Origin: a virus
Taxonomy: Duplodnaviria; Caudoviricetes
DNA length: 49,564 bases
Direction: 5' to 3' (one strand)
IMG/VR virus record: IMGVR_UViG_3300046786_000524
Span: 1-49,564 of that record
Position numbers and translations under genes: made by a program. Every line of letters starts with the position of its first letter. Position 1 is the stretch's first letter. Below the pieces are notes generated by a model. The model was given only the letters and a program-made list of their open reading frames with translations. It was not told the DNA's origin and searched no databases. This document shows positions 16,462-49,564 of the stretch, one piece after another.

Positions 16462-19117
16462 GGGTGCTCAGCCCGACAACGCAAGCCAACACGGTGCACG
16501 GACGCGGCGATTGTGCTTGCAGGCAAAGCCTTGAATCGGTATCCCATGTGCCCGGGAACTCGAATGCAACTTCGTCAAACGTATCGTGAACCGTGTCTTC
16601 ACTGATCGCGGACCAGCCAGAAGTTAGCGGCAGCTCATCAAGATGATCAAAGTCAGGGCCATAGGAAAGGCCTTGATAATGGGTGTCTTTGAGGATCACG
16701 CCCAGCTGATTGATGCGCTTTGGCTGGACAAGCGAAGAGCCAAGTTGCGCGCCATAGGCAAGCTTTGTCGACTTGAACCGCGCCGTATATGGGAGACCGA
16801 CAAACGCCCGAGTGACTGACTCGCCAAGCCCGGTGATTTGGCCGCTGGCCACGGTGAACGTGCCAAGATCCTTGCCTGCGCCCCACACGCAAACGCTTTC
16901 ACCCTCAAGATGCGACAAGCCGGTAATCGTAGTGGTTGCCGATCCAGAATACTCAAGAAAGCAATCCGAAAGCTTGTTGACGGTGCCGCCGACCGCTTCA
17001 GATTCTTGCGCCCACTTTTCCAGATAGCGAACCGTCGACCCGTTGATCGTCCTGCGTACCACGTAATAAACGGCATCCTCATCGGTGCCGGGCAGCACAA
17101 CACAATCCTCAACCACGCCGTCGGTTTCAAACAGTACCCAGCACCTGACATTTTCAACCACTTCGCTGACCAGAATTGCCACCTTTCCGTCAGATCGAAC
17201 ACAGTGCACGCGAGTGTCAGGCTGCGTCTGAACCGCAACCTTCACAATCCCTGGCTGCCCGATGTCTGGAATCAGCGCCATCAGATCCGCAGGCGAATAT
17301 TCGTTTTCTTGGATATCAAAACCCAGTTGATACAGGCGCGAGCCAGAGCGCTGAACAAACAGCACCGACTTGTCGACGATCGCATTGGCAACCTTCGCCG
17401 CGCCTTGGGATGAAATAGGTTTGAGGCTGAAGTTGGTTGCCGTCAGGGGCTCATCAAAGCTGGATGATTTGGCCGACATAATACGGGCATCATTGCCCAC
17501 CAGTAGACGCGAAACAGGGGCCAGCCAGTTGATAACGTCAATGGTGCCAGATCCGATCGATCGATTGATGGGCGCCGAGTCGCCAATGACCTCATCGTCA
17601 AACGATTCATAACCGTCGGAGACGGAGCCCCAGACTTTATCTTTGCCGGCCCACCACAAGCGGCCATCATACAGCGAGACCGATGTCGGGAAGCCCCGAT
17701 AGTCAGACCACATGCCTTCTGCCCATGCCGTCGTGGCGTCGGTGCCACCCAGATCAACAAGCACGGCTGCGGTGACTTCGGTGTCGCTAACGTAACTGGT
17801 TACACGCACAACACCAGTCGTTGAACCGCCTTCAAACTCCATGCTCACGACTGCGGTACCGGATGTATAGCCACCAGTTTTAACGCCAATCCGATAAAAC
17901 ACGACCATGTTGTCAAGCTCATCATCGTAGGTCGTCGTTCCGTTGCTGGTGTATGTCGTCACATCTGACCATGCCCCGGATTCACCGATTGAGCGCTGCA
18001 GCGTGAGCGTTGCCGACCATGTTCCAGAACGCACGATAGAGAATTTGCGAGAGTCCCCGATCCCGGTGATGCGAATATCGCCTGACCAAGTATCTTCAGC
18101 AACGAACGATTCTTCTACTCGCTGGCCAATCGAATCAATCCTGAATAGCGCGCGGACATGCTCTTCTTTGAAGAATCGCCCAGAAGACGTGATCGTTATG
18201 TTTCCGCTTAATCCAGAGGGGGTCAGCTTAATTCCGCCTTGGTTATACGTGAAAAACGGGCCGTCATTCGGCATATACCGGACAATTGACCATGACGTCG
18301 CTGATCGTCTCTCGATCTTGTACTGTTGCTCGCCCTCGCATGCCACATAGACAACATCGCCTGACTGATCCCAGCGCAGCAAAGGAAGTTCAGTAGATGC
18401 CCATGACGTCGGGAGCGTAATCTCACCAGCCGCCTCGACCTCGACCGAGGTCACCAACGAAACCGCCTTCTTTTCATTAAGCAGCTGAATCCAGAAATCA
18501 CTACCCGTCGGAGTAAAGGCAATGGAGTGATACCCCTGGCCAAGGGTTGTCTCTGACACGAAATCATCGCGAGTAGCAGTAGAGCCCACGCGCAAACGAA
18601 CGGGGCCGCGAGAAACAACGATCCTCAACGCATGCTCAACGCCTTCATCCTCAGCGGCAACGACAACCTGCTGCCTGCGTTCGGCTGACCCGGTGCCTGT
18701 ACCTGTAAGGCCAAGATATCCACCGGAAACCCACGCCGAACTTGCGCCTGCGTCGCTTGAATCTGACCAGCCTGATAAGTCAGTATCAAATGTGCCATTG
18801 CTGACGGTGGCAGAAACGGACGGCCTTGTGACAATGGCATCGTCCACCCACACGCGCAGGATTCCACTGGTCAGTTCAATCAGCGCGCAATCATCGGCTG
18901 CAAAAATGAATGGTATCAATCGTGCCGTATGGTTCTGATACATGCCACCGATATACTCAGTACCCGGGCGCAACATCATGCTGCCAAGCGTGCGCGGCAT
19001 CCAATTCGTTTGCTCAGACGCTGACAGCGCAGTACGCGGGAGATCCGTTCTGGCAAGCGCAAGTTCAGATATGACGCCCCTGTTAAAACATAGGAGACTC
19101 ACATTTTCTCTTGCCAT
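16448..19117 (-). CDS. tail tubular protein B / nozzle
   Basis: 889 aa; FNRGVIS, RPGT, DQSGDVVY, GFPTSVSLYDGRLWWA, VGLPY motifs of podovirus nozzle proteins. Confidence 0.85.
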   Translation of the reverse strand: MARENVSLLCFNRGVISELALARTDLPRTALSASEQTNWMPRTLGSMMLRPGTEYIGGMYQNHTARLIPFIFAADDCALIELTSGILRVWVDDAIVTRPSVSATVSNGTFDTDLSGWSDSSDAGASSAWVSGGYLGLTGTGTGSAERRQQVVVAAEDEGVEHALRIVVSRGPVRLRVGSTATRDDFVSETTLGQGYHSIAFTPTGSDFWIQLLNEKKAVSLVTSVEVEAAGEITLPTSWASTELPLLRWDQSGDVVYVACEGEQQYKIERRSATSWSIVRYMPNDGPFFTYNQGGIKLTPSGLSGNITITSSGRFFKEEHVRALFRIDSIGQRVEESFVAEDTWSGDIRITGIGDSRKFSIVRSGTWSATLTLQRSIGESGAWSDVTTYTSNGTTTYDDELDNMVVFYRIGVKTGGYTSGTAVVSMEFEGGSTTGVVRVTSYVSDTEVTAAVLVDLGGTDATTAWAEGMWSDYRGFPTSVSLYDGRLWWAGKDKVWGSVSDGYESFDDEVIGDSAPINRSIGSGTIDVINWLAPVSRLLVGNDARIMSAKSSSFDEPLTATNFSLKPISSQGAAKVANAIVDKSVLFVQRSGSRLYQLGFDIQENEYSPADLMALIPDIGQPGIVKVAVQTQPDTRVHCVRSDGKVAILVSEVVENVRCWVLFETDGVVEDCVVLPGTDEDAVYYVVRRTINGSTVRYLEKWAQESEAVGGTVNKLSDCFLEYSGSATTTITGLSHLEGESVCVWGAGKDLGTFTVASGQITGLGESVTRAFVGLPYTARFKSTKLAYGAQLGSSLVQPKRINQLGVILKDTHYQGLSYGPDFDHLDELPLTSGWSAISEDTVHDTFDEVAFEFPGTWDTDSRLCLQAQSPRPCTVLACVVGLSTHDKA

Positions 19118-19152
19118 ATAATGTAGAACCTTTTGCTTTATCTGGTGGTCTA

Positions 19153-19821
19153 ATGTCTGGTCGCGGAAGCTTTAAAAATATTTCCGGTCAAAAATTTAAA
19201 TCGTGGACTGTCATTGAATTTTCGCATTCTGAAAATGGATACGCCGTATGGGTATGCAAATGCGAATGCGGAACAATCAAAAACATGCGCACGACATACC
19301 TTAAAGGAACAGGTGCCGAGTCATGCGGATGTAAGCGCGGCAAACACAAACACACTGGAGACTGGGGAAAATCTCCAACCTACAGGTCATGGCAAAACAT
19401 GATTGCAAGATGTGAATCGCCATCATGCCCGTCGTTTAATCACTATAAGCAAAAAGGCATTTCTGTATGCGGTCGCTGGCGACACGGAGAAAAAGGCCTT
19501 TCTGGTTTTGAATGCTTTCTTGCTGATGTCGGAGAAAGACCAACGTCAAGCCACACACTGGACAGAATAAACAATGATCTTGGTTATTCTCCCGACAACG
19601 TCAGGTGGGCAACCAAAATAGAGCAAGCCAACAACAGAGAAACAAACAAATTCTACCCTTACAAAGGGAGGCTACTAACAATCGCAGAGCTTGCAAGAGA
19701 AACCGGCGTATCAAAAGAGCTTTTAAGAACAAGGCTTGTTAGATCAAAGCTTCCGTGGACAGCTGAGGGAGCCGTTGAAACAAAACAGCTTACAAAATCA
19801 AAGGCTGGGTTTTATAAATAA
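19153..19821 (+). CDS. free-standing HNH homing endonuclease
   Basis: WVCKCECG, SCGC, YRSWQNMIARC, HTLDRINNDLGYSPDNVRWAT; AT-richer and antisense within the late operon. Confidence 0.85.
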   Translation: MSGRGSFKNISGQKFKSWTVIEFSHSENGYAVWVCKCECGTIKNMRTTYLKGTGAESCGCKRGKHKHTGDWGKSPTYRSWQNMIARCESPSCPSFNHYKQKGISVCGRWRHGEKGLSGFECFLADVGERPTSSHTLDRINNDLGYSPDNVRWATKIEQANNRETNKFYPYKGRLLTIAELARETGVSKELLRTRLVRSKLPWTAEGAVETKQLTKSKAGFYK

Positions 19822-25302: not shown

Positions 25303-25629
25303 TTACCCGCCCAGGCCTTGGCCGTTGTTGCCGCCGCTCATGATTGTCGACGCACGGCCACCGCGAGAAGTAGCACCAGCCCGGCGACGCGCGCGCTGAA
25401 GCTCAAGTTCGTCAGGCATAGGCATCGCCTTATTCGCGGCCTCTTGTGCTGCAGTCAATCGGTCAAGCGCTGTCGTGTCAGGCGCCATCAGCATCGACAT
25501 GTCTTCAGCTGTACCCTTGAGAATCTTTTTTTGCGCGTTCAAATTCCAAGGATTAAGCGCAGCCTGACCAATGCGTGCCAACCGCTTCGGATTCACCGCG
25601 TTTTTGATTGATTTACCTAAACCGCTCAT
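25303..25629 (-). CDS. small virion protein between terminase and portal
   Basis: ATG 25629 overlaps the terL TAA; C-terminal RGGRASTIMSG…LGG is typical. Confidence 0.65.
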   Translation of the reverse strand: MSGLGKSIKNAVNPKRLARIGQAALNPWNLNAQKKILKGTAEDMSMLMAPDTTALDRLTAAQEAANKAMPMPDELELQRARRRAGATSRGGRASTIMSGGNNGQGLGG

Positions 25630-28322
25630 TATCTTCGTCTCCTGGCGTTCGCATGCCCTACGTTGACAGATGGACGATTTCCACCCTGCCACTGCTTGTA
25701 ATGTGTCGCCATGCGCGCGCCTTCGGTGTAGCACATGACAACCGCGTCACCACGGTCGGGTGAACGCCCTATTCGCTTTGCGACTTCTTCTTTCGGTTCG
25801 GCATGTATGACGTTTTTCCTGACCTCATAGTGCACTGCCGTCAGATCCGACAACAGCACCTGGTCAGGAGGTAGCGCAATTTGTGAGCCGCCCAATTGCG
25901 ACGGATCAAGCGCTTCACGAAACCGCCACAGGCATTCCGTTCTCTTGTTCGCGAATGTCAGTGTCCCGTCTTTTGTGCGAGCGCTTGAACCGGTCGCCCC
26001 TTTGTATGCAACCACCGGGTCATTGTTATCGTGAAAATGCTTGTATGCAGAGCCGCCGTAACCACCACCGCAGTCAATGATGATCAGTGCACCGTCCCGG
26101 CGATGCTTGACGATCTCGCCGCTGATATCTTTGCCGAGTGGCGTCTGAGATCCCGGAATAATTTGCAGCTCAGAAAACCAGCTGTCATACCTGGCCGCGA
26201 TAACGTTGTTGTCGGCCCCGCCTTGTGCGACATCTGCAGCGATCGCGCACATGGGGATACCAGCCGGCGGCATTGGCTTCCAGCGCGCTTGCGCCTCGAT
26301 GACCCATTGGGTAGGGATCAGCTGCCACGGGTGATCTTTCAAGCCAGCATCAAACCGGCCGTCGCGATACGCTTCGCGTAATTCCTTCGGCAGTGCGTCA
26401 AGAACACGTTCGTATTGACCATCTGCCGATAGATCTGGATTGTCAGAAAGCTTTGCTGGGATGAACGTGCGCGACTTCGCGTAGACGTCTTTGCCGCCTA
26501 TCTGGTGCGGCCCTGGCCCGTCAACCTCGATGTCAGCGCCGTCTTCGTCCGAGAGGAACCAGCGCAGTTCACCAGGCTTGGCAGGATTGTGATGCTTTGG
26601 ATCCAGCCACGGCGCCCAGCGTTTGATAACCCAAAGGCCTTCAGCCGACGTTGGCGGGTTACCGGTGCACACAACGCGGCAACGCTGGCCTTGAGTCGCT
26701 GACCGGTTCCAGATCGTGATAAACACGTATTGCGATTCAAGGAAGTCTGTAACCTCATCGAACACGATCAGGTCATGCGGGTCGCCCTTGTAGCGCTGCT
26801 TGTCCTGTTCCATTTCGCAGCCGCCGAACGTGATGTGTCGACGGTCATCGCGATAGACCAGATCAGAACCGTTCCACCCGTCACGATCGCCGTCGCGTAT
26901 CTTGCCGATGAATTCAGCGTCAGCCAGTTTTTTGGCGTCTTTGTTGTAGCGACGCAGGATCAGTGTGCGCTCATGCGATTCATAAGCAAGGCCACAGCCA
27001 AGGGCACTGTTGTGCGTTGTGATGAATGTCTCACCGACGCAATACAGGCCACCGACAACCGTGATGCAGTTCATCGGTACCGGTGCGCATGGCCGCACGC
27101 CAACAATGTAACGACGCTTGCACGTTGCACGCTCAGGGCTGCATTGGCGCTTCAGTTTCCGCGTCAGCTTGAAGGCGTCAAAGTCGGCAATGAACTTCAT
27201 GCGGAAATGATCAGCATGCTTTTCGCTTGCCATCGGCTTTTGCCGAATGGAGCACTTGATTCCCAGAGAGTTGATCAGGTGCAGCGCATCATGCGCGAGT
27301 GCCTTGTTGCTCAGCCCAAGCTCAATCTGACCGCGTTCGTCACATGTGCCATCTGTATCAAGAAGCCCACGCAGCAGCTCGCGACGCTGTTCAATGCTTG
27401 CCCGCAAATATTCAGGCGGAATCCTCTTTGTGCGAGGCCTTGCATCTAGTTCGGTAAATCGCCGAATCTGAACTTCCTGCTTGCGCCCTTTGTCTTTACC
27501 TTCAACGATAATTCCTGCCGCTGCAGGAAGATGCTTTTCGATATCGGCCCAATCCGCCGACATCATGATCAATTTGCCGGCCCTGGTATATCCGTCTCCA
27601 AGCCACAGCCCCAGCAGATATGGATCAATCGGCAGGGCCGCATGCGGGTGATCGATAGCCTTGATGACCTCGATCGAGTGGTTGAGCCTGCCGCCGCGAA
27701 CCGTCAGCGTTTCAAGAATGTCGCGCGTTGTTCTTATCGATCCAGCTGGAACCGCAATGTCATGCTGCCGCGCCTTGTTGATCGCTATGATCGATGACGA
27801 TACCCACGGCTTCTTGCTGGCTTGCTTTGCCCTGCTTGGTCTTGCTGCCTTGCGTTTTTCCCGCCACTCGGGGGATGAACGCAAAAGCCTGTCACGCTCC
27901 CGGTAATCCCATGTCAACCAGCGATGCCTGGCGTCAGCAACGACAATCTCACCAGTGCTGAACTCAACCTCATAAGCGTCTGGCTTATGTTCTGTCGGAT
28001 GCCGCCAGATAACCAGTACCGGCGCGCCTTCTGGCCCGTAGACGTAATCACCAGGCTTCAGGTCGCCATGCCGCTTGAAGCCGGTCGGGTCCGTTGAGAG
28101 CGGCACCGGAACCGGAGTGTTTTCGTCCAGAAGTTTCCCGCCGCCTGCCTGGCCGCCGTAAAACAGTTCGTCAGCCTCAGAAAACCAAGCGTCCGTTTGC
28201 GGCCCAGGGTTCGGCACAAACGTTGCCCCTGCCGTCGCCGTCATCGCTGTTTCGACGATCTCCTTTTGCACATCAGCTGGCAATGCAGCCAGCCGATTCA
28301 GGATGTCATCAAGTGGATTCAT
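25629..28322 (-). CDS. terL: terminase large subunit containing an intein
   Basis: Walker A GGQAGGGK|S split by the intein; Walker B IVFDE; CTGNPP; nuclease motifs ADVAQGGAD and SPDRGDA. Confidence 0.92.
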   Translation of the reverse strand: MNPLDDILNRLAALPADVQKEIVETAMTATAGATFVPNPGPQTDAWFSEADELFYGGQAGGGKLLDENTPVPVPLSTDPTGFKRHGDLKPGDYVYGPEGAPVLVIWRHPTEHKPDAYEVEFSTGEIVVADARHRWLTWDYRERDRLLRSSPEWREKRKAARPSRAKQASKKPWVSSSIIAINKARQHDIAVPAGSIRTTRDILETLTVRGGRLNHSIEVIKAIDHPHAALPIDPYLLGLWLGDGYTRAGKLIMMSADWADIEKHLPAAAGIIVEGKDKGRKQEVQIRRFTELDARPRTKRIPPEYLRASIEQRRELLRGLLDTDGTCDERGQIELGLSNKALAHDALHLINSLGIKCSIRQKPMASEKHADHFRMKFIADFDAFKLTRKLKRQCSPERATCKRRYIVGVRPCAPVPMNCITVVGGLYCVGETFITTHNSALGCGLAYESHERTLILRRYNKDAKKLADAEFIGKIRDGDRDGWNGSDLVYRDDRRHITFGGCEMEQDKQRYKGDPHDLIVFDEVTDFLESQYVFITIWNRSATQGQRCRVVCTGNPPTSAEGLWVIKRWAPWLDPKHHNPAKPGELRWFLSDEDGADIEVDGPGPHQIGGKDVYAKSRTFIPAKLSDNPDLSADGQYERVLDALPKELREAYRDGRFDAGLKDHPWQLIPTQWVIEAQARWKPMPPAGIPMCAIAADVAQGGADNNVIAARYDSWFSELQIIPGSQTPLGKDISGEIVKHRRDGALIIIDCGGGYGGSAYKHFHDNNDPVVAYKGATGSSARTKDGTLTFANKRTECLWRFREALDPSQLGGSQIALPPDQVLLSDLTAVHYEVRKNVIHAEPKEEVAKRIGRSPDRGDAVVMCYTEGARMATHYKQWQGGNRPSVNVGHANARRRR
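27009..28133 (-). mobile_element. class 3 intein with LAGLIDADG homing endonuclease (375 aa)
   Basis: Starts LLDENTPVP, ends ITTHN|S; block B HRW, block F MNCITV; LLGLWLGDG and LLRGLLDTDG motifs. Confidence 0.88.
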
Positions 28323-36662: not shown

Positions 36663-37480
36663 ATGGATCGCTCACTCAAAAGCCGGAAAGCTTCAGCGGC
36701 GCATTGTGGTACTTGCCCATTGCCAAGGGCTTTAATTCTGTCCACCCTAGCGGCCACCCCATCAGCCACTCGACCCACGTCGGGTTCAGCCTGCCAGTCT
36801 GGCCATTCAATGCGGCTTCCCGCTCTATCGTGTAATCTATCCGGTCGTCTGTATCCGCCCTGTTGTGGTTCTTGCTCCACCCCTTGTGCGCTGTCGCTGT
36901 CGCTGTCGGAAACATTCTCACCGCCGTAGCCAACCCGGTGCCTCTCTTCGTTCCCTGTTTTGGCGCGTTGTTGTTGCCGTGCACTGTCGGCGTTGGCAAC
37001 AATCCAGATGCGGTCACGTTTGTGACGTGCTCCCACGTCGTTTGCTCCCAGCACTCCCCATTGAGCATCAAACCCCATCGCGGCCAGGTCTCCGAGTACA
37101 ATTCCAAGTCCGCGAGAAACGAGCGCTGGGGAGTTCTCCACAAACACAAATCGTGGTCGAACTTCGCAAATAATCCGAGACATCTGCTTCCAAAGCCCTG
37201 AACGCTCTCCGCCAATCCCTTTGCCTGATCCGGCAACGCTGATGTCTTGGCACGGAAACCCGCCAGAAACCACGTCAACAATTCCGCGCCACGGCTTTCC
37301 GTCAAAAGTGCACACGTCAGACCAAATCGGGAAAGGCTCAAGGGCTCCATCGTTTTGTCGTTGCGACAGAACGGCTGCGGCGTAGGCATCACGTTCAACT
37401 GCGCACACGGTTCGCCATCCGAGCAATTTGCCTGCGAGTATTCCGCCACCAGCGCCTGCGAAAATAGCCAACTCATTCAC
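36659..37480 (-). CDS. C5 cytosine DNA methyltransferase, large (alpha) chain
   Basis: Motif I FAGAGG, IV GFPCQ, VI ENS, VIII HKRDRIW, X KALGNG. Confidence 0.9.
   Translation of the reverse strand: MNELAIFAGAGGGILAGKLLGWRTVCAVERDAYAAAVLSQRQNDGALEPFPIWSDVCTFDGKPWRGIVDVVSGGFPCQDISVAGSGKGIGGERSGLWKQMSRIICEVRPRFVFVENSPALVSRGLGIVLGDLAAMGFDAQWGVLGANDVGARHKRDRIWIVANADSARQQQRAKTGNEERHRVGYGGENVSDSDSDSAQGVEQEPQQGGYRRPDRLHDRAGSRIEWPDWQAEPDVGRVADGVAARVDRIKALGNGQVPQCAAEAFRLLSERSI
36676..37476 (-). CDS. overlapping alternative-frame beta chain of the C5 methyltransferase
   Basis: Long stop-free second frame containing LLPTPT and the motif IX-like RLNPTWVEWLMGWPLGWT; true start likely internal. Confidence 0.65.
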   Translation of the reverse strand: MSWLFSQALVAEYSQANCSDGEPCAQLNVMPTPQPFCRNDKTMEPLSLSRFGLTCALLTESRGAELLTWFLAGFRAKTSALPDQAKGLAESVQGFGSRCLGLFAKFDHDLCLWRTPQRSFLADLELYSETWPRWGLMLNGECWEQTTWEHVTNVTASGLLPTPTVHGNNNAPKQGTKRGTGLATAVRMFPTATATAHKGWSKNHNRADTDDRIDYTIEREAALNGQTGRLNPTWVEWLMGWPLGWTELKPLAMGKYHNAPLKLSGF

Positions 37481-41396: not shown

Positions 41397-41404
41397 GAGA
41401 GATA

Positions 41405-41609
41405 TACCTAGTTGTGTACCTAGGTATATTCTTGCTTAAACTTTGGTGTATGGCAAGCAGGGATTGCAACTTTCAAAATTTACCAAGGTAAACATCAGGC
41501 ATACACAAGCCATATATCTAGGTATATTTTTTTGTGCACAACAGTTGACTAAAGTCGATACGAACATTAACCTAGGTATATGTCGCCGCATACCTAGGTA
41601 TCTGGCGAC
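41405..41609. promoter_or_regulatory. divergent control region with about six TACCTAGGTA palindromic operators
   Basis: Copies at 41405, 41417, 41481, 41515, 41569 and 41591; + strand promoter TTGACT(41545)-17 nt-TAACCT(41568) overlaps one operator. Confidence 0.7.
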
Positions 41610-42113: not shown

Positions 42114-42331
42114 TCAACATTGACTACCACGCAAACAGCGGAATCGTTTCGCTGCAGGTCGATCTCGATTGCAATGCGCCGCAAATTTTCATCGGTGACC
42201 AAAACATTGGCGAGCTGATCCACAGTCACAATTTTTGGGAAATCGTCAGGCAAGCCGAAAAGATCGCAAAACAGGACGCCGATGACGAGCGCGGCGAATA
42301 CCTACACACAATGGGATACGGAAAACAATGA
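42110..42331 (+). CDS. hypothetical protein
   Basis: 73-aa coupled ORF. Confidence 0.6.
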   Translation: MINIDYHANSGIVSLQVDLDCNAPQIFIGDQNIGELIHSHNFWEIVRQAEKIAKQDADDERGEYLHTMGYGKQ

Positions 42332-43122
42332 CCTCAATAGTCGCGATCCGCGCATCAAGCCTGGCCGAGCTTTTCGATTGCCCTGCCAGATGGGAAGCAA
42401 AAAACCTGCTTGGAATGAGAATGCCGAGCAGCGGCGCCGCAACGCTGGGCACGGCCGTGCATGCTGGTACCGCAGTGTTTGATCAGTCCGTCATTGACGG
42501 ATCCGGGATCAGCATTGACGAAGCGGCCAGCGCAGTCGTAGATGCCATCTACAAGCCCGAGCAGGATGTTGCATGGGATGAAGACATGCAGCCCAAAACC
42601 GCCGAAAAGATCGCCCTGGCACTGCATACCAAATACTGCAGCGAAATTGCCCCAAAGCAGAATTATGTCGGCGTCGAAATCACATGCGAACGACTTGAAA
42701 TAACTGACCTTGGCATTGCGCTTACCGGCACAACCGACAGGATCCGCAAAACCGCAGAAGGCCTTGGCGTGTCGGATCTTAAAACCGGTGGCCGCGCGGT
42801 CGGATCCGATGGCCGCGCAGTGACATCAGGTCACGGCCCGCAATTGGGCGTTTATGAGTTGCTTGCAGAGCGATCCATTGGCCAGCCAATCACCGCGCCC
42901 GCTGAAATCATTGGCATGCAGACCGCCAAAACGACGCAGAAGGTCGGCACCGGCCAAATCAAAAACGCCAAAGCTGCATTGCTTGGCGATTCAGAATCTC
43001 CCGGATTGCTTGAGCATGCGGCCGGGATCATCCACGCAGGACGCTTTTACGGAAACTCGAAGTCAACGCTGTGCAGTGCACGCTACTGCCCCCGTTTTTC
43101 CACCTGTAAATTTAAAGGTTAA
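42328..43122 (+). CDS. PD-(D/E)XK (RecB/RecE-like) exonuclease
   Basis: DCPARW, LGTAVH, GTTDRI, DLKTG, QLGVY and a C-terminal Cys cluster; next to RecT. Confidence 0.8.
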   Translation: MTSIVAIRASSLAELFDCPARWEAKNLLGMRMPSSGAATLGTAVHAGTAVFDQSVIDGSGISIDEAASAVVDAIYKPEQDVAWDEDMQPKTAEKIALALHTKYCSEIAPKQNYVGVEITCERLEITDLGIALTGTTDRIRKTAEGLGVSDLKTGGRAVGSDGRAVTSGHGPQLGVYELLAERSIGQPITAPAEIIGMQTAKTTQKVGTGQIKNAKAALLGDSESPGLLEHAAGIIHAGRFYGNSKSTLCSARYCPRFSTCKFKG

Positions 43123-43126
43123 TCAC

Positions 43127-44197
43127 ATGAGCCAAGCCACAAACATCGCAGACCTGAAACGCACCAGCACCATGATCGCAAAAGATGCCGGTATCGGAAG
43201 CGTTAAAAAGTTTTTCGAGTCGCAGAAAGCAACCATGGCGGCAGTTCTGCCGAAACACATGGACGCCGAGCGCATGCTGAAACTCGCCCTGGGCGCGCTG
43301 CGTACCACGCCAAAGCTGATGCAGTGCCGCACAGATTCTCTCTTTGGTGCCATTGTGCAGTGTGCGCAATTGGGCCTTGAGCCAAACACCCCGCTTGGTC
43401 ATGCCTATCTGCTGCCGTTCGAGAACCGCCAGAAGGGCATTACAGAGGTGCAAATTATCCTTGGATATAAAGGCCTGATTGATCTTGCGCGCCGCTCAGG
43501 GCAGATCGTCAGCATATCAGCGCACGAGGTTTGTCAGAAAGACCACTTTGAATATGAGTACGGTCTTGATGAAAAGCTTGTTCATCGCCCCGCCCTTGGC
43601 GATCGCGGTCAAGTCATTGCCTTCTACGCAGCCGCAAAGCTTGTCGGTGGCGGGTATGCATTCGAGGTTATGAGCGCCAAGCAGATCGAAGAGATCCGCG
43701 ACGCAAGCCAGAACTACAAATTTGCAAAGGACAAAACCAAGACCGTTTGGGGTCAGCACTTTGTCGAGATGGGCCGCAAAACGGTACTGCGCCGCCTCTT
43801 TAAGTACCTGCCCGTATCAATCGAATTGGCAACCGCTTCCGCCCTTGATGACAGATCGTCACGCGGAGAAAGCCAAGGCCTGGATGAGGCATTGAATGGC
43901 GATTTCAGCGTCATCGACTCGGACGCAGAGCGTTACCAGGACGATAACGAAACTGTCGATACCAGCACAGGAGAGGTTACCCGCAACGAACCCAATGCCC
44001 TTGGCCTTGGCCTGCAGGACGCAATTGCAGCTGCGCGCCAGGGCGACATCGACACGGCCATGGACATCAGTCGCGGCCTGAACGAGCGCGATCGCCAAGA
44101 GCTTGAGCGGCATTTGCCTCTTGAACAAGCAGAAGCACCCGCAGAACCGCAACGCGCACCGGCACCACGCCAGCGCCAAGCCCGCAACCTCGACTGA
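43127..44197 (+). CDS. recT: RecT single-strand annealing recombinase
   Basis: AQLGLEPNTPLGHAYLLPF, GYKGLIDLARRSG, EMGRKTVLRRLFKYLP. Confidence 0.92.
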   Translation: MSQATNIADLKRTSTMIAKDAGIGSVKKFFESQKATMAAVLPKHMDAERMLKLALGALRTTPKLMQCRTDSLFGAIVQCAQLGLEPNTPLGHAYLLPFENRQKGITEVQIILGYKGLIDLARRSGQIVSISAHEVCQKDHFEYEYGLDEKLVHRPALGDRGQVIAFYAAAKLVGGGYAFEVMSAKQIEEIRDASQNYKFAKDKTKTVWGQHFVEMGRKTVLRRLFKYLPVSIELATASALDDRSSRGESQGLDEALNGDFSVIDSDAERYQDDNETVDTSTGEVTRNEPNALGLGLQDAIAAARQGDIDTAMDISRGLNERDRQELERHLPLEQAEAPAEPQRAPAPRQRQARNLD

Positions 44198-44240
44198 ACC
44201 ACGGGGCGGTGAAAGCCGCCCTATTTGGAGCGACTGAACA

Positions 44241-46109
44241 ATGAAAATTTCAAGAATCGAACTCACCAACTTTCAGGGGCTGCGCAGTGCGCGGCTACAG
44301 CTCACCAAGCCCGTGCTGATGGCTACTGGCGCCAACGGTGCCGGCAAGTCATCGCTGCTTGAAGGGATCCGCCTGGCGCTGCTTGGCAACCCCGAGCGTG
44401 TAGGCCTGAAAAAGGAATTGAGCAAGCTTGTCACCGAAGGCGCCAAGCGCGGTGGCGTAGACGTCATCACCGAGAACCAGCTGCACTTTGCCTACACACT
44501 GCCAGACGGCAAGCACACAGCGCCGGCAGAGCTCGGCAACCATATCGGCTTTGTGCTTGATGCCCAGAACTTTGCGCGGGCAACGCCTGATGTCAGACGC
44601 GCAACTTTATTTGCGCTGACCGGATGCAAGGTAGACGCCGCCGAGGTGACAAAGCGCCTGATCCAGCGCGGCGCAACGCAGGAACGCATTGACCTTGTGC
44701 TGCCAATGCTGCGCTCAGGATTCCCAGCCGCCGAGGGCTTTGCCAAAGAGCAGGCCACCCAAGCCAGAGGCGCCTGGCGCGCAGTGACTGGCGAAACCTA
44801 CGGCGAGAAGAAGGCAGATGGATGGAAGCCTGAAGCCATAGCATGCCCAGACCAGCAGGAAATGGCTGACCTGAATGACGCCGTGATTGCGCTATCGCAA
44901 GAGAAAGACCGGGCGCAAGAAACGCTGGGCCGGGCACGGCAGATCTCAGAGAGTATTGCCTCCGATCGCGATGCGCTTGCAAAGGCAATAGAGAAGGCGA
45001 ACCAGCTGCCACGTCACAAGCAAAAGCTTGCCGTCGACCAGGCAGAACTCGACAAGTGGGAGGCGAAGGTTGCAGAAGCCAAGGCCGCATACGTGCAGAC
45101 AAAGCCAGCCGCCCGCCCTACGGCCAAACTCGACAACGCAATGCTCGACGCCTTTGCGGTTGTAGCAAGTGAATGGCTGGATCTGGTCAGCAAGTCACAA
45201 GGCGTGGTCAATAACTTCAACGTTTGCGAAAACTGGGATCAGCATGCAGGCCTGATCAATCGCACCACCGCCCACGTGTCGACCTACAAAGCCCAGCACG
45301 GCGAACCGCTGACACAAGACGACAGCGACACGCCTGACGTTGCAGCTCCCAACGCGGCCGCACTGGAAGCGTCACGGAACATGTTTGCCCGAGCAGTAGC
45401 GAACGACTTGCGGGACATCGTTGCCGCTGAAGCCGCAGAAGAACAGGCCCAAAAACTTACTGACAAAATCAACGAAGTAAAAGAGATCCGGGTATCCGAC
45501 TTCGTGGAAGCGGTCAACGCAGCGACCGAAAAGCTGAAGGCCGCCGAGGCACGACTTGATGCGCTGAAGGATGCAGCCTACGCATTCACCACCGCACAAA
45601 CCAAAGAGGCAGACGCAGCCAGGCACCACGCCGACGTTGCCGGATGGCTTCTGATCGCTGACGCATTGTCACCCAGCGGGATCCCCGCCGAGATCCTGGC
45701 CGGCGCCCTTCGCCCCGCCAATGACGCATTGCACCAGGCCGCATCATTCGTTGACTGGCCGCGCGTGCAGATCAGCACCGACATGGAGATCACCGCAGCT
45801 GGACGGCCTTACGCCCTGCTCAGCGAGTCGGAGAAGTGGCGCGCTGACTGCCTGCTTGCCCTGACCATTGCAAAGCTGTCAGGCCTCAAGCTGATCGTTC
45901 TGGATCGCTTTGATGTGCTCGACATGCAAGGCCGGAATGATCTGATCGATCTACTGGATGACGCAGCCACCAGCTGCGATATCGAAACCGCCATTGTCGC
46001 CGGCACGCTGAAAACAGCGCCGACCGGCATGCCTGAAACCTTTGATGTCGCGTGGATCGAAAACGGCGAGATCAACAATCTGAAACTCGACGGAGAGCAA
46101 GCAGCATGA
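44241..46109 (+). CDS. Rad50/SbcC-like coiled-coil ABC ATPase
   Basis: Walker A GANGAGKS, long coiled coil, LSESE signature, IVLDRFD Walker B region. Confidence 0.8.
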   Translation: MKISRIELTNFQGLRSARLQLTKPVLMATGANGAGKSSLLEGIRLALLGNPERVGLKKELSKLVTEGAKRGGVDVITENQLHFAYTLPDGKHTAPAELGNHIGFVLDAQNFARATPDVRRATLFALTGCKVDAAEVTKRLIQRGATQERIDLVLPMLRSGFPAAEGFAKEQATQARGAWRAVTGETYGEKKADGWKPEAIACPDQQEMADLNDAVIALSQEKDRAQETLGRARQISESIASDRDALAKAIEKANQLPRHKQKLAVDQAELDKWEAKVAEAKAAYVQTKPAARPTAKLDNAMLDAFAVVASEWLDLVSKSQGVVNNFNVCENWDQHAGLINRTTAHVSTYKAQHGEPLTQDDSDTPDVAAPNAAALEASRNMFARAVANDLRDIVAAEAAEEQAQKLTDKINEVKEIRVSDFVEAVNAATEKLKAAEARLDALKDAAYAFTTAQTKEADAARHHADVAGWLLIADALSPSGIPAEILAGALRPANDALHQAASFVDWPRVQISTDMEITAAGRPYALLSESEKWRADCLLALTIAKLSGLKLIVLDRFDVLDMQGRNDLIDLLDDAATSCDIETAIVAGTLKTAPTGMPETFDVAWIENGEINNLKLDGEQAA

Positions 46110-46160
46110 GCGTCATCATATTCCGGCGACGGCTACGGCTACGGCGACGGCTCCGGCTAA
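46106..46160 (+). pseudogene. collapsed Gly-X (GDGYGYGDGSG) repeat gene
   Basis: TCC GGC GAC GGC TAC GGC TAC GGC GAC GGC TCC GGC TAA (46122-46160) is out of frame with the coupled ATG at 46106. Confidence 0.5.
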
Positions 46161-46221
46161 TAACGATTGATTTAATCGCCCGCCCGAGCGCATCGGGCAC
46201 CAACAAACTCAAGGGGTATTT

Positions 46222-46527
46222 ATGGGGCATGATGTAATTGGCTTTAAGCAAGCGCCAACCGACGAAAACGGAGAGACAAACAAAGAAATAGCATCGTTTT
46301 ATCGTGGTGCATTCAACAAACTGGGCAGAGAAATATACCGCGCGCTTGAGTGCGTTGAGATGGATTGCGGAGTGTCTGGGTGTGGTGGCTATTTGGAGTT
46401 TTCGCACGATCAGCTAAAAGCGGCTCACGATAGGCTTGCGGAACATTTGCAGCCCGAGCGTGATTTTTTGGCGGCGCTGATTGACTACACCAAAGATGGC
46501 AAGCCGTGTTTTATTGCGTTCTGGTAA
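46222..46527 (+). CDS. hypothetical protein
   Basis: 101 aa with AAGGGG RBS; last gene before the cassette array. Confidence 0.7.
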   Translation: MGHDVIGFKQAPTDENGETNKEIASFYRGAFNKLGREIYRALECVEMDCGVSGCGGYLEFSHDQLKAAHDRLAEHLQPERDFLAALIDYTKDGKPCFIAFW

Positions 46528-46589
46528 ACGCTTGCCCGTGCGTAACGGGCACCCTTTCGCATGTGCGTTGTGAGAGCGCACAGCCGAAA

Positions 46590-46645
46590 GAGTAACCCCA
46601 AGTTCAGCGGCCCGCCTGCGGGTCCGCTGCAACGCCCGGTTAGGC
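46590..46645 (-). mobile_element. attC-like site 1 (array-terminal)
   Basis: Minus strand GCCTAAC CGGGC GTTGCAGC GGACCCGCAGGCGGGCC GCTGAAC TTGGG GTTACTC. Confidence 0.8.
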
Positions 46646-46745
46646 CATGCCACCGACACCGCCCGATGTGGGCACCACACCAAGCTGGGCCGCCAGGCCG
46701 AGCGTTTGATTCAGAGGCTCACGGAGTGGGCCGGATAGGAGCGAT

Positions 46746-47252
46746 ATGAAGATTGCAGTGAGCGAGGAAAAAAAGGTACTTGACGCATGCTGCGGCAGCC
46801 GCATGTTTTGGTTCGACCGGAAGGACGCGCGTGCCGTGTTTGTGGACAAGCGCCGGGAGCGCCACACACTGCCAGACGTCTCGAGCAAGGGCGGCTCGCG
46901 CGATCTGGTGATTGACCCAGACCACCAAGCCGACTTCACCGCGCTGCCATTTGCCGATCAGACATTCGCCCTTGTCGTGTTTGACCCGCCTCACTTCGAG
47001 CGCAACGGCGCCACTGGCTGGGTCGGGCTGAAGTACGGAACGCTGAAGGGCGACTGGCGCGGGATGTTAAGGGCCGGATTTGCCGAGTGTTTCCGGGTGC
47101 TCAAGCCAGATGGCACGCTGATATTCAAGTGGTGCGAAGACGAGATTCCCGTGTCGCAGATTTTGGCATTGACGCCGGAGAAGCCACTGATCGGACACCG
47201 CAGCGGGAAGCAGCAGAAAACGCACTGGATCGCGTTCCTGAAAGGGGCCTAA
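46746..47252 (+). CDS. SAM-dependent methyltransferase (cassette A)
   Basis: VLDACCGSRMFW, VVFDPPH, ECFRVLKPDGTLIFKW; the stop TAA lies in the attC core. Confidence 0.85.
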   Translation: MKIAVSEEKKVLDACCGSRMFWFDRKDARAVFVDKRRERHTLPDVSSKGGSRDLVIDPDHQADFTALPFADQTFALVVFDPPHFERNGATGWVGLKYGTLKGDWRGMLRAGFAECFRVLKPDGTLIFKWCEDEIPVSQILALTPEKPLIGHRSGKQQKTHWIAFLKGA

Positions 47253-47302
47253 CCAGACAGCTAAGCGGCGGCGTAGCCGTCCGCTTGAGCGCCCGGTTAG
47301 GC
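47247..47302 (-). mobile_element. attC-like site 2
   Basis: Minus strand GCCTAAC CGGGC GCTCAAGC GGACGGCTACGCCGCC GCTTAGC TGTCTG GTTAGGC. Confidence 0.88.
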
Positions 47303-47326
47303 GGCACACGATAGAAAGGAATTGAG

Positions 47327-47998
47327 ATGGCAGAGAAAGTGGTGATCGGGAACGCGGAACTTTGGCACGGAGACTGCCGCGAGGTGCTGCCGCTGCTGCC
47401 TAAGCATGACCTACTGCTGACGGACCCGCCCTACGGGATTGGCACTGGCGCTGCATCTGTTGGAAGTGGCGGGAAGCTGTGGGGCGCACAGGATTGGGAT
47501 TTAGTCATTGCCAACGATGCGGTGCAGATGGCGCTTTCAAAAGCTGGCGCGGCGATTGTTTGGGGTGGGAATTACTACCCGCTGCCGCCTTCTCGGTGCT
47601 GGCTGCTGTGGGACAAAAAGCAATCGGACGCTTGGTATTCAACGGCGCACTTTGAGATGGCCTGGACAAACATGAACAAGAACGCCCACGCATTCCGAAT
47701 GTCGCAAGTAGAGGCGCATACAGGGATGAACAAAGAACACCCATCACAAAAGCCGCTGCGGCTGATGGCCTGGTGTTTGGACCAAGCTGGCAAGCCCGCC
47801 ACGGTGCTGGACCCGTTCATGGGGTCGGGTAGCACTGGCGTGGCGTGCGTGCAGCTTGGCAAGGCGTTCACCGGCATCGAGCGCGAGCGCAAGTATTTCG
47901 ATATTGCGTGCGAGCGCATAGCCCGAGCCCAAGCGCAAGGCCAGTTGCTGCCGCCTGAACCAGTGGCCGCGCCTGAACAACAGACGATGGAACTGTGA
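47327..47998 (+). CDS. beta-class amino (N6-A/N4-C) DNA methyltransferase (cassette B)
   Basis: HGDCRE, TDPPYG, HPSQKP, LDPFMGSGSTG. Confidence 0.9.
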   Translation: MAEKVVIGNAELWHGDCREVLPLLPKHDLLLTDPPYGIGTGAASVGSGGKLWGAQDWDLVIANDAVQMALSKAGAAIVWGGNYYPLPPSRCWLLWDKKQSDAWYSTAHFEMAWTNMNKNAHAFRMSQVEAHTGMNKEHPSQKPLRLMAWCLDQAGKPATVLDPFMGSGSTGVACVQLGKAFTGIERERKYFDIACERIARAQAQGQLLPPEPVAAPEQQTMEL

Positions 47999-47999
47999 C

Positions 48000-48057
48000 G
48001 CCTAACGCCTGAATTAACCGGCGCCGTCAGGCGTCCGGGTTGAATGAAAGGTTAGAA
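48000..48057 (-). mobile_element. attC-like site 3
   Basis: Minus strand TTCTAAC CTTTC ATTCAACC CGGACGCCTGACGGCGCC GGTTAAT TCAGGC GTTAGGC. Confidence 0.88.
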
Positions 48058-48059
48058 CC

Positions 48060-48278
48060 ATGGACAGACACGAATTACAAAAAGATGGGAAGCACCCTGC
48101 GCCATGCGCGAGGTTTTGTGAAGCCAACGCTTTCAAAATCGAACTTAGAAACCTGCAACTTGAAAATTTCAGGCTGCGCGAGGCAATATGCAGAACGCTA
48201 CAAGAAAACAAGCATCTTGCAGACGGAGAAGATTGCACGCTGATCCACATTAAGCGTGCGATGCAATCTAACCCCTGA
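48060..48278 (+). CDS. hypothetical Cys-containing protein (cassette C)
   Basis: 72 aa, HPAPCARFCEA…HLADGEDCTL; fills the space between sites 3 and 4. Confidence 0.65.
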   Translation: MDRHELQKDGKHPAPCARFCEANAFKIELRNLQLENFRLREAICRTLQENKHLADGEDCTLIHIKRAMQSNP

Positions 48279-48320
48279 ATTAAGCCGCGCCTTGGCGTCC
48301 GGTTGAACTGGCGGTTAGAC
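48266..48320 (-). mobile_element. attC-like site 4
   Basis: Minus strand GTCTAAC CGCCA GTTCAACC GGACGCCAAGGCGCG GCTTAAT TCAGGG GTTAGAT. Confidence 0.85.
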
Positions 48321-48348
48321 CCAGCCACAACACCGATAAGAAGACCAT

Positions 48349-48615
48349 ATGGACAAGGACATGCACCACACAGAGTGCCCCCATGGTGGGTACAAAGAAA
48401 AGATCGACCTGACCGTCGAACCATGGGCCACGCTGGCGCCCCTGTGCTGGGACAACCCGTCAGCGTTCCGCCTTGGCTGGGCGGCAGAAGAACATGGCGT
48501 CAAGCAGAACCCGTTCAAAAGCGAGTTCACGCGCGGCGTTTTTGAGGCGGGTCGCCAGAGATGCCGTGAGGCTGGCACGTCAAACACCAAGACGCTGCAT
48601 GCACCTGGGGTCTAA
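48349..48615 (+). CDS. hypothetical protein (cassette D)
   Basis: 88 aa; the stop TAA lies in the attC core. Confidence 0.65.
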   Translation: MDKDMHHTECPHGGYKEKIDLTVEPWATLAPLCWDNPSAFRLGWAAEEHGVKQNPFKSEFTRGVFEAGRQRCREAGTSNTKTLHAPGV

Positions 48616-48665
48616 CGGCTTGGTAACCGGCTGCCGCAGGCAGTCCGGTTGACCTGGTGTTAGGC
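48610..48665 (-). mobile_element. attC-like site 5
   Basis: Minus strand GCCTAAC ACCA GGTCAACC GGACTGCCTGCGGCAGCC GGTTACC AAGCC GTTAGAC. Confidence 0.85.
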
Positions 48666-48699
48666 CACTGGTTGAGAAACGAACGAAAGGACGACTGAC

Positions 48700-49302
48700 A
48701 TGGAATTTCAAGACTTCCCGAAGATGGCGCGGCTGACCCGCGAAGTGATCGTGACCGAGAAGATCGACGGCACGAACGCGCAGGTTTTCATTGGCGAAGA
48801 TGGCACACTGCTGGCCGGCAGCCGCACGCGCTGGATTACCCCGGCCGATGACAATTTCGGCTTTGCCGCGTGGGTTGAAGCGCACCGCGACGAACTGCTG
48901 ACGCTGGGGCCTGGCCGCCACTTTGGCGAGTGGTGGGGTGCCGGCATTCAGCGCCGGTACGGCTTGAGCGAAAAGCGGTTCAGCTTGTTCAACGTGCAGC
49001 GGTGGGCGTTGCACGGCACCGCGCCGAAGACCTACCCGACCGCCGACCCGCGAGTGACGCGCACGCAAGACGTGCTGCCACCCTGCTGCGGGCTGGTGCC
49101 GGTGCTGTATCAAGGCCCGTTTGACACTGCGGCAGTTGATCTGTGCATTGAAAGCCTGCGGCTCACCGGCAGCGTGGCCGCGCCCGGCTTCATGAAGCCC
49201 GAGGGCGTGGTGGTCTTCCACACGGCTGGCAACGTGGGCTTCAAGAAGACCGTGGAGAAGGACGAATTGCCGAAGGCTCTTGCCGCGCTGCAAGTGGCCT
49301 AA
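48700..49302 (+). CDS. RNA ligase, Rnl2-like nucleotidyltransferase domain (cassette E)
   Basis: Motif I TEKIDGTN, GSRTR, FGEWWG, FSLFNV, VPVLYQG, PEGVVV, FKK; the stop TAA lies in the attC core. Confidence 0.85.
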   Translation: MEFQDFPKMARLTREVIVTEKIDGTNAQVFIGEDGTLLAGSRTRWITPADDNFGFAAWVEAHRDELLTLGPGRHFGEWWGAGIQRRYGLSEKRFSLFNVQRWALHGTAPKTYPTADPRVTRTQDVLPPCCGLVPVLYQGPFDTAAVDLCIESLRLTGSVAAPGFMKPEGVVVFHTAGNVGFKKTVEKDELPKALAALQVA

Positions 49303-49353
49303 CGCAGAAGTCAGCGGCGCCGGCACGGCGTCCGCTGGACTGCCGGGTTATAC
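49297..49353 (-). mobile_element. attC-like site 6
   Basis: Minus strand GTATAAC CCGGC AGTCCAGC GGACGCCGTGCCGGCGCC GCTGACT TCTGC GTTAGGC. Confidence 0.85.
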
Positions 49354-49374
49354 GGCTGGAACTACGGAGTGACC

Positions 49375-49564
49375 ATGCTGGAACTGGACAAGATTCACTG
49401 CGGCGACAACTGCGACTTGCTCGGGCAACTGCCGCGAGAGTGCATTGACTTGGTGGTGACAAGCCCGCCATACGATGACCTACGCACCTACGGTGGACAC
49501 TCTTGGGATTTCTTCGGGGTGGCGTGGCAACTGAAGCGCGTGCTGAAGCCTGGCGGCGTAATTG
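49375..49564 (+). CDS. beta-class amino DNA methyltransferase, truncated by the window end (cassette F)
   Basis: GGAG RBS; MLELDKIHCGDNCDLLGQLPRECIDLVVTSPPYDDLR…RVLKPGGV. Confidence 0.85.
   Translation, partial: MLELDKIHCGDNCDLLGQLPRECIDLVVTSPPYDDLRTYGGHSWDFFGVAWQLKRVLKPGGVI

Follow-up and report, generated by a model that had tools for sequence, protein, structure and literature searches.

The IMG/VR record IMGVR_UViG_3300046786_000524 (G000) is a linear viral contig, 49,564 bases long, analyzed here in full and referred to as the window, in which the same-strand early gene run of a phage very probably ends in an integron-type cassette array whose genes lie on the bottom strand of their attC sites, with an integrase likely cutting the folded coding strand of each site between AA and C. 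In the usual integron cassette the gene stands on the top strand, 5' of its own attC; none of the six genes of this array is placed in that way, all being encoded on the plus strand, that is, on the bottom strand of the sites. A sequence-only reading of the region had put all six genes on the plus strand and the canonical orientation of all six sites on the minus strand, and both placements were borne out, the former by gene calls (four of the genes having Pfam or PHROG matches) and the latter by assignment of the extrahelical bases. The sites, in window positions, are as follows.

46590 to 46645, attC site 1, canonical on the minus strand with plus as the bottom strand; C46630 and T46623 unpaired, the first of these being C where G is usual.
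47247 to 47302, attC site 2, canonical on the minus strand; G47287 and T47280 unpaired; the same body precedes an unrelated gene in locus L084.
48000 to 48057, attC site 3, canonical on the minus strand; G48042 and T48034 unpaired, plus a third unpaired base.
48266 to 48320, attC site 4, canonical on the minus strand; G48305 and T48298 unpaired; the weakest site and a chimera of two body types.
48610 to 48665, attC site 5, canonical on the minus strand; G48651 and T48644 unpaired.
49297 to 49353, attC site 6, canonical on the minus strand; G49338 and T49331 unpaired; its body is shared with 11 other viral sites.

Read on the plus strand, each of the six runs as (R/Y)4-AAC, L, loop, L, GTT, and each has R'' and R' cores with AAC and GTT, L boxes, an unpaired central spacer and a stem-loop, the stem of site 4 being mismatched. 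The two unpaired bases, a G in L'' (C in site 1) and a T six pairs further on, sit on the 3' arm of every site, opposite the cleaved AAC. Accessible text of two studies gives the bottom strand as the one bearing the extrahelical G and T opposite the cleaved AAC arm (PMC5027507; PMC2727003), and from this definition and the positions of the extrahelical bases it follows that plus is the bottom strand and minus the canonical orientation. The call was made with a purpose-written attC scorer, checked on bacterial integrons and on phage TJE1, which gave 16.5–21.5 with plus as the bottom strand against 12–14 for minus in all six sites; at a threshold of 17 it found no site across 20 shuffled windows, and a motif derived from the sites had four matches in the window and none in 100 shuffles. 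The extrahelical T was kept in 344 of 345 sites, a figure partly imposed by the scorer, and the purine skew of the sites was near even. Folding both strands, as the sequence-only reading had proposed, was less clear: plain folding energy prefers plus in four of the six sites and clearly prefers minus in site 2, and minimum-energy folding was rejected as a strand test because it is not decisive. Two further hairpins lacking a T run lie directly before site 1 (46533–46590) and may be a decayed attC or a transcription signal.

The cassettes bounded by these sites, and their genes, are listed below; the limits, and the three TAA stops that close cassettes 1, 4, and 5 (47250, 48613, and 49300), fall where they had been placed from the letters.

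46596 to 47252, cassette 1, plus-strand gene at 46746 to 47252: DNA methyltransferase (phrog_954, E 5e-70).
47253 to 48005, cassette 2, plus-strand gene at 47327 to 47998: N6/N4 DNA methyltransferase (PF01555, E 2e-17).
48006 to 48271, cassette 3, plus-strand gene at 48060 to 48278: protein of 72 residues, no family; a piece is present in a sequencing run of another study.
48272 to 48615, cassette 4, plus-strand gene at 48349 to 48615: protein of 88 residues, no family; TAA (48613) is the final three bases.
48616 to 49302, cassette 5, plus-strand gene at 48700 to 49302: RNA ligase family (PF09414, E 6e-14); TAA (49300) is the final three bases.
49303 onward, cassette 6, plus-strand gene at 49375 to 49564: DNA methyltransferase cut by the contig end (phrog_67, E 9e-15).

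In cassette 1 the TAA likewise forms the final three bases, and homology to relatives ends at AAC; the stop of the cassette 3 gene lies seven bases into the following cassette. Several cassettes are found beside changed neighbors, namely 1, 2, 5, and 6 in related phages and 4 in a run contig from the other study, which matches up to 48616 and then continues into a different attC. Copies of the RNA ligase that are 96–100% identical as protein have other neighbors and five different upstream bodies, and full-length relatives of the cassette 6 methyltransferase measure about 257–262 residues. The proteins of cassettes 3 and 4 had no Pfam or PHROG family, and all of their atlas look-ups scored below 0.9. 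On circularization the R' of a cassette complements its own R'' at 7, 7, 6, 7, and 7 of 7 positions, against 5, 7, 5, 6, and 6 in the array, a comparison that is neutral as to strand. The three methyltransferases and the RNA ligase would fit a cargo for counter-defense. Homologues of the cassette 2 methyltransferase (47327–47998) in loci L388, L393, L396, and L400 are 60–64% identical overall but nearly identical over the initial 24 residues, the final 45, and the flanks, which suggests from the alignment that the middle, specificity-bearing part has been exchanged.

Inverted polarity is not peculiar to this array. One motif was scanned through 17 of 64 parts of IMG/VR (132 loci) and 3 of 64 parts of the GTDB genomes (131 loci); 80 viral and 80 bacterial loci came with flanks and were treated with an identical scorer and gene caller. 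At the R'' side of 201 viral sites the gene was flipped in 160, normal in 12, uncalled in 25, and ambiguous in 4, whereas among 244 bacterial sites 24 were flipped, 145 normal, 66 uncalled, and 9 ambiguous. By locus, 62 of 69 viral arrays were flipped (4 normal, 3 tied) and 59 of 70 bacterial arrays normal (4 flipped, 7 tied), and of the four bacterial loci that are flipped, L324 and L330 are prophage-like by gene content. The survey of phage contigs that the sequence-only reading had called for thus upholds its proposal of a distinct reverse-polarity class. One body, with 0–4 mismatches, carries flipped genes at six of eight viral sites (the other two uncalled) and normal genes at five of five bacterial sites; it is identical in viral locus L026 and bacterial locus L289 and, compared by eye, lies one base from the aadA7 bottom strand as given in Table S3 of PMC9892861. 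The published TJE1 array has normal polarity by the same scorer. These controls (bacterial loci, shared body, and TJE1) indicate that the strand call holds and that the flip is a phage trait. The adjacent core supplies its TAA as the stop codon to 108 of 273 flipped viral genes and to 70 of 173 normal bacterial ones. No homologues of 531 flipped viral genes were found among 189 normal bacterial cassette genes, which is consistent with separate pools of phage and bacterial cassette genes, the bacterial sample being small. An initial frame-only polarity test (39 flipped, 22 normal, 12 both, and 68 neither among 141 sites) was too noisy and was replaced.

Single normal-polarity cassettes lie antisense within flipped arrays at L046:3610–3987, L533:1121–1519, and L073:934–3294 and are possible captures from host integrons. 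That the normal-polarity genes in phage arrays are host defense cassettes was not established: of the 34, a single one has a match among bacterial cassette genes, several are neighbors in convergent orientation at array ends, and the sole defense family found by Pfam on 24 viral-locus genes was a type I restriction-modification-like gene in an all-normal array. Some long attC sites carry a ribosome site and start codon in the loop (L330:3780–3875, L136:6887–6986, and others).

The boundary of the mobile unit was sought among 619 distinct viral sites, pairs of which were classed by whether they share the upstream flank, the hairpin body, or the downstream flank. The upstream flank alone was shared by 48 pairs, upstream flank and body by none, body and downstream flank by 24, the downstream flank alone by 81, the body alone by 221, and all three by 3, with 296 pairs sharing none and 624 dropped as ambiguous. 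Where the same upstream gene had a new neighbor the body changed in 48 of 48 pairs, identity falling from 0.94–1.0 to background within two bases of AAC; none of the 48 pairs and none of the 19 families showed linkage of upstream gene and body, and on the downstream side 16 of 33 families keep the body in some pair. Neighbors therefore switch between AA and C and the body travels with the downstream gene, as the sequence-only reading had held in placing each attC upstream of its gene, but the tie is loose. The identity edge of pairs sharing only the downstream flank or only the body is sharp at GTT. In site 6 the body stands before the same gene at two further viral sites and before other genes at nine, and in site 4 the left arm of one body type is joined within the loop to the right arm of another. 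For 310 bacterial sites, 0 of 39 pairs sharing a downstream flank had a changed body, although many of these are within-genome repeats that give little power.

Full-length IntI was present in four viral loci that had been retrieved for other reasons, and fragments in two. A search with one viral IntI returned 74 viral loci, of which 72 were examined and 60 are distinct; in these the bottom strand is the intI strand at 85 of 85 upstream attC sites, whose genes are flipped in 78 cases, normal in none, and uncalled in 7. Upstream sites were present in 29 of the 46 IntI loci with enough room for them. The usual layout in related phages is array, attI-like site, and intI, all on one strand, and bacterial integrons show the same strand geometry of intI and attC. 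All 15 proteins tested passed the TIGR02249 cut-off; the enzymes beside these arrays are thus of IntI type, and a Xer-like enzyme was not what was found there. When 59 viral IntI sequences were placed in a tree with 38 bacterial ones, which included the best matches from a plausible host order (301 genomes), 41 viral sequences form a phage-only clade with no bacterial row (SH-aLRT branch support 99). A conserved non-hairpin motif follows the AAC of the last cassette (pattern match in 21 of 40 loci, visible in more) and may represent attI. In a smaller viral group (L599–L603, L615, and L616) a second layout is seen: intI stands upstream of its array, whose cassettes have normal polarity and share its strand. 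That intI and cargo lie on one strand in either layout suggests that the constraint is fit into the phage transcript. Truncated intI remnants adjoin flipped arrays at L135:1806–2216 and L417:5499–5717.

No intI was found in cis in G000, about 94% complete by estimate and cut where relatives carry attI and intI, and the attI-like motif has no match in the window, its expected place lying past the contig end. Since the contig stops inside cassette 6, the phage's own intI could lie in the gap, and attI and intI would then follow just beyond the contig end. With its six co-oriented attC, this cut contig may be a CALIN (a cluster of two or more co-oriented attC with no integrase nearby), provided that the genome indeed has no intI. 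A host enzyme would also be available, since IntI occurs in 106 of 301 genomes of the plausible host order (a tally that includes two unpublished genomes).

From what is observed, namely site anatomy, polarity, switching of neighbors between AA and C, and the same-strand placement of IntI behind an attI-like site in relatives, a mechanism can be proposed. An IntI of the phage clade (with its gene in the gap left unsequenced, or coming from another phage) or of the host would cut the folded plus strand between AA and C, releasing circles of hairpin plus gene that would insert at the downstream, promoter-distal end of the array. The intI-attI-attC geometry would be that of bacteria, with the genes alone flipped, which would put cassettes and intI into one transcript; the likely reason for the polarity is an IntI lineage of phages whose gene occupies the downstream end of such arrays and shares their strand. 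As the genes point toward attI, a cassette promoter (Pc) there would be antisense to them, and flipped genes captured by a host integron would likewise be antisense to Pc, as the polarity predicts. Host cassettes captured in a phage array would by the same token be antisense and silent. Against host restriction and RNA-cleaving defenses, the methyltransferases and the ligase would serve as countermeasures. Replication presumably starts in the O-like gene, as we assume from lambdoid phages, and the plus strand would then be the lagging template here. A lagging-template position favors attC folding, according to the accessible text of PMC5371416. A second, less frequent process appears to swap the hairpin body of a cassette.

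Several observations weigh against this account. The body was changed in 81 of 105 pairs with a common downstream flank, and neither these swaps nor the site 4 chimera is explained by a reaction confined to the bottom strand; the pair counts, moreover, are not independent and exclude the 624 ambiguous pairs. No tyrosine recombinase was found in G000, and the gap from contig end to contig start was not closed, run contigs being too short and a scan of the metagenome giving one weak match. Genes were called with a home-made codon-model caller, the viral set was enriched by our own queries, and the IntI tree is a quick one. Flipped polarity is not universal in phage arrays, those of TJE1, L599–L603, and L615 being normal. 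P12002L_attC1, the site that failed with IntI1 in the portion of PMC9892861 available, is placed here on the strand of its gene and is the sole inverted-type phage site tested in print, although it is atypical and was not called by our scorer. The claim that the coding strand is the recombinogenic one accordingly survives in part: plus is the bottom strand, but because a gene that stays often has its body swapped (81 pairs, compared with 24 that retain it), exchange probably involves more than the coding strand. Recombination on the other strand or homologous exchange seems to act as well, and the body swaps could stem from IntI acting on the top strand, from exchange of the RecT type or from fresh assembly.

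A first alternative is that the sites, integron-derived, now serve mainly as short homology linkers for exonuclease-RecT recombination by the phage, with no need of an integrase. The two enzymes are encoded in the same gene run, site 4 joins its two body types at a five-base stretch shared inside the loop, the methyltransferase homologues are divergent in the middle with near-identical ends, and the record holds no integrase. Such linkers would not explain why identity switches at the three-base AAC and GTT cores rather than within the longer shared stems, nor the one-directional retention of the unpaired bases (for T, partly a product of the scorer), nor the intact IntI beside arrays of related phages, and we regard this explanation as unlikely. 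The sharp edge at GTT in the 81 pairs with the same gene and different bodies and the 221 with the same body and different flanks could instead mean that IntI uses both strands comparably, in which case the unit would be the gene between two R cores, the hairpin would belong to neither neighbor, and 'upstream attC' would be an overstatement; short attC sites were in fact less strand-selective in IntI1 assays (PMC5027507, accessible text). Crossovers at GTT should, however, link an upstream gene to its body, which no pair or family of the 48 and 19 available does, and nearly half of the downstream families keep theirs, leaving comparable use of the two strands very unlikely. That the hairpins act in the transcript, in RNA processing or control of translation, with the attC likeness or strand call misleading, could be argued from the 88 of 531 flipped viral genes that begin inside their site and from the failure of folding energy alone to choose a strand; given that the same scorer and motif yield textbook polarity in bacterial integrons and TJE1, that identical bodies occur in bacterial integrons, and that Rfam has no match for the attC sites, it is scarcely credible. 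Integrase cleavage of the folded coding strand at AAC, accompanied by some exchange of bodies, is thus preferred. A bolder extension, in which the phage IntI clade recombines both hairpin ends and so joins bodies shared with bacteria to new genes, while the flip silences host defense cassettes in phages and phage cassettes in hosts, is put forward tentatively and is perhaps rather doubtful.

Portal, major head, tail, terminase, DnaB, O-like, and Cro-like genes, recognized by Pfam and PHROG matches in the window, indicate a short-tailed phage, and the array closes a same-strand run that extends from 41.6 kb and holds exonuclease, RecT, and SbcC-like ATPase genes before it. Two features lie upstream of the array.

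42328 to 46109, plus strand: PD-(D/E)XK exonuclease, RecT, and SbcC-like ATPase genes, identified by family matches; candidates for homologous exchange.
41545 to 41573, plus strand: possible early promoter, unproven, with 8 of 12 consensus bases by eye; it overlaps a repeated palindromic operator-like motif (repeat family D3).

The promoter candidate, from which the sequence-only reading would have the array expressed, is absent from the output of a promoter scan, and the scan for promoters and terminators yielded matches at chance level. At least four copies of the operator-like motif lie between cro and the rightward genes (41400–41609), and no cI-like gene was called. RNA runs contain pieces of the region as contigs that carry neither strand nor level. 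Positions 45023–49393 are reproduced with zero differences by overlapping contigs of one run, possibly that of the source sample. In L133, the closest backbone relative, the sequence stops 2.7 kb past the SbcC-like gene with no attC called, and a short Gly/Asp/Tyr-coding repeat at 46122–46158 is a remnant of a Gly-rich gene present there. The first partial gene of the contig has 14 relatives (35–48% identical), 13 of which have no attC nearby; annotated phages match the window at gene level only. A fourth DNA methyltransferase lies outside the array at 36676–37476 with no attC called near it, the terminase large subunit at 25629–28322 contains LAGLIDADG domains and likely an intein, and an HNH endonuclease at 19111–19821 lies among the tail genes on the opposite strand.

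Phage CALINs carrying methyltransferases, with bottom-strand recombination reported for five of six sites, have been described (Qi 2023, PMC9892861), and the present array resembles them in its attC cluster, its methyltransferase cargo, and a record lacking an integrase. In its available text that study calls TJE1 and PH101 typical in orientation and does not discuss flipped genes, although its figures or Dryad annotation may show orientation; nor does that text report a phage IntI clade, unlike the present analysis. The ctTUS972 array from the same study is flipped by our scorer (two sites). Canonical integrons (class 1 and betaproteobacterial chromosomal) are alike in attC anatomy, shared bodies, the crossover between AA and C, a TIGR02249 integrase, and, at the attI end, an intI carried by the bottom strand. 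They differ in that the phage genes lie on the bottom strand and point toward attI and intI, that a phage promoter at the opposite end would drive expression, leaving the newest cassette furthest from it, and that the pairing of gene and hairpin is loose in phages, the bacterial count of 0 of 39 pairs with a changed body having little power. The inverted-integrase integrons of Treponema and others, as described in the accessible part of Cury et al. (2016; 10.1101/030866), resemble the phage arrays in that intI and cassette genes are co-directional. In the Treponema type it is intI that is flipped relative to attC, whereas here it is the genes, with intI in its usual position; the phage loci L599–L603 and L615 are arranged in the Treponema-like manner. 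In the literature covered, which takes in few subscription journals, no account of flipped cassettes as a class found in phages turned up; such cassettes are real, general in phages, and apparently unpublished as a class.

Integrons are usually regarded as bacterial devices, a view that a phage branch would change, and it is likely that the integron system has a separate branch belonging to phages. The frequent occurrence of one gene with different hairpins bears on the assembly of gene cassettes, an open question to which the bolder extension above, if true, would offer a testable route. Integrons also stockpile anti-phage systems (10.1101/2024.07.02.601686, accessible text). If phages do have such a branch, equipped with integrases of its own, sharing attC sites, and reversing gene polarity, both sides of the conflict would be using one recombination standard while maintaining separate gene pools.

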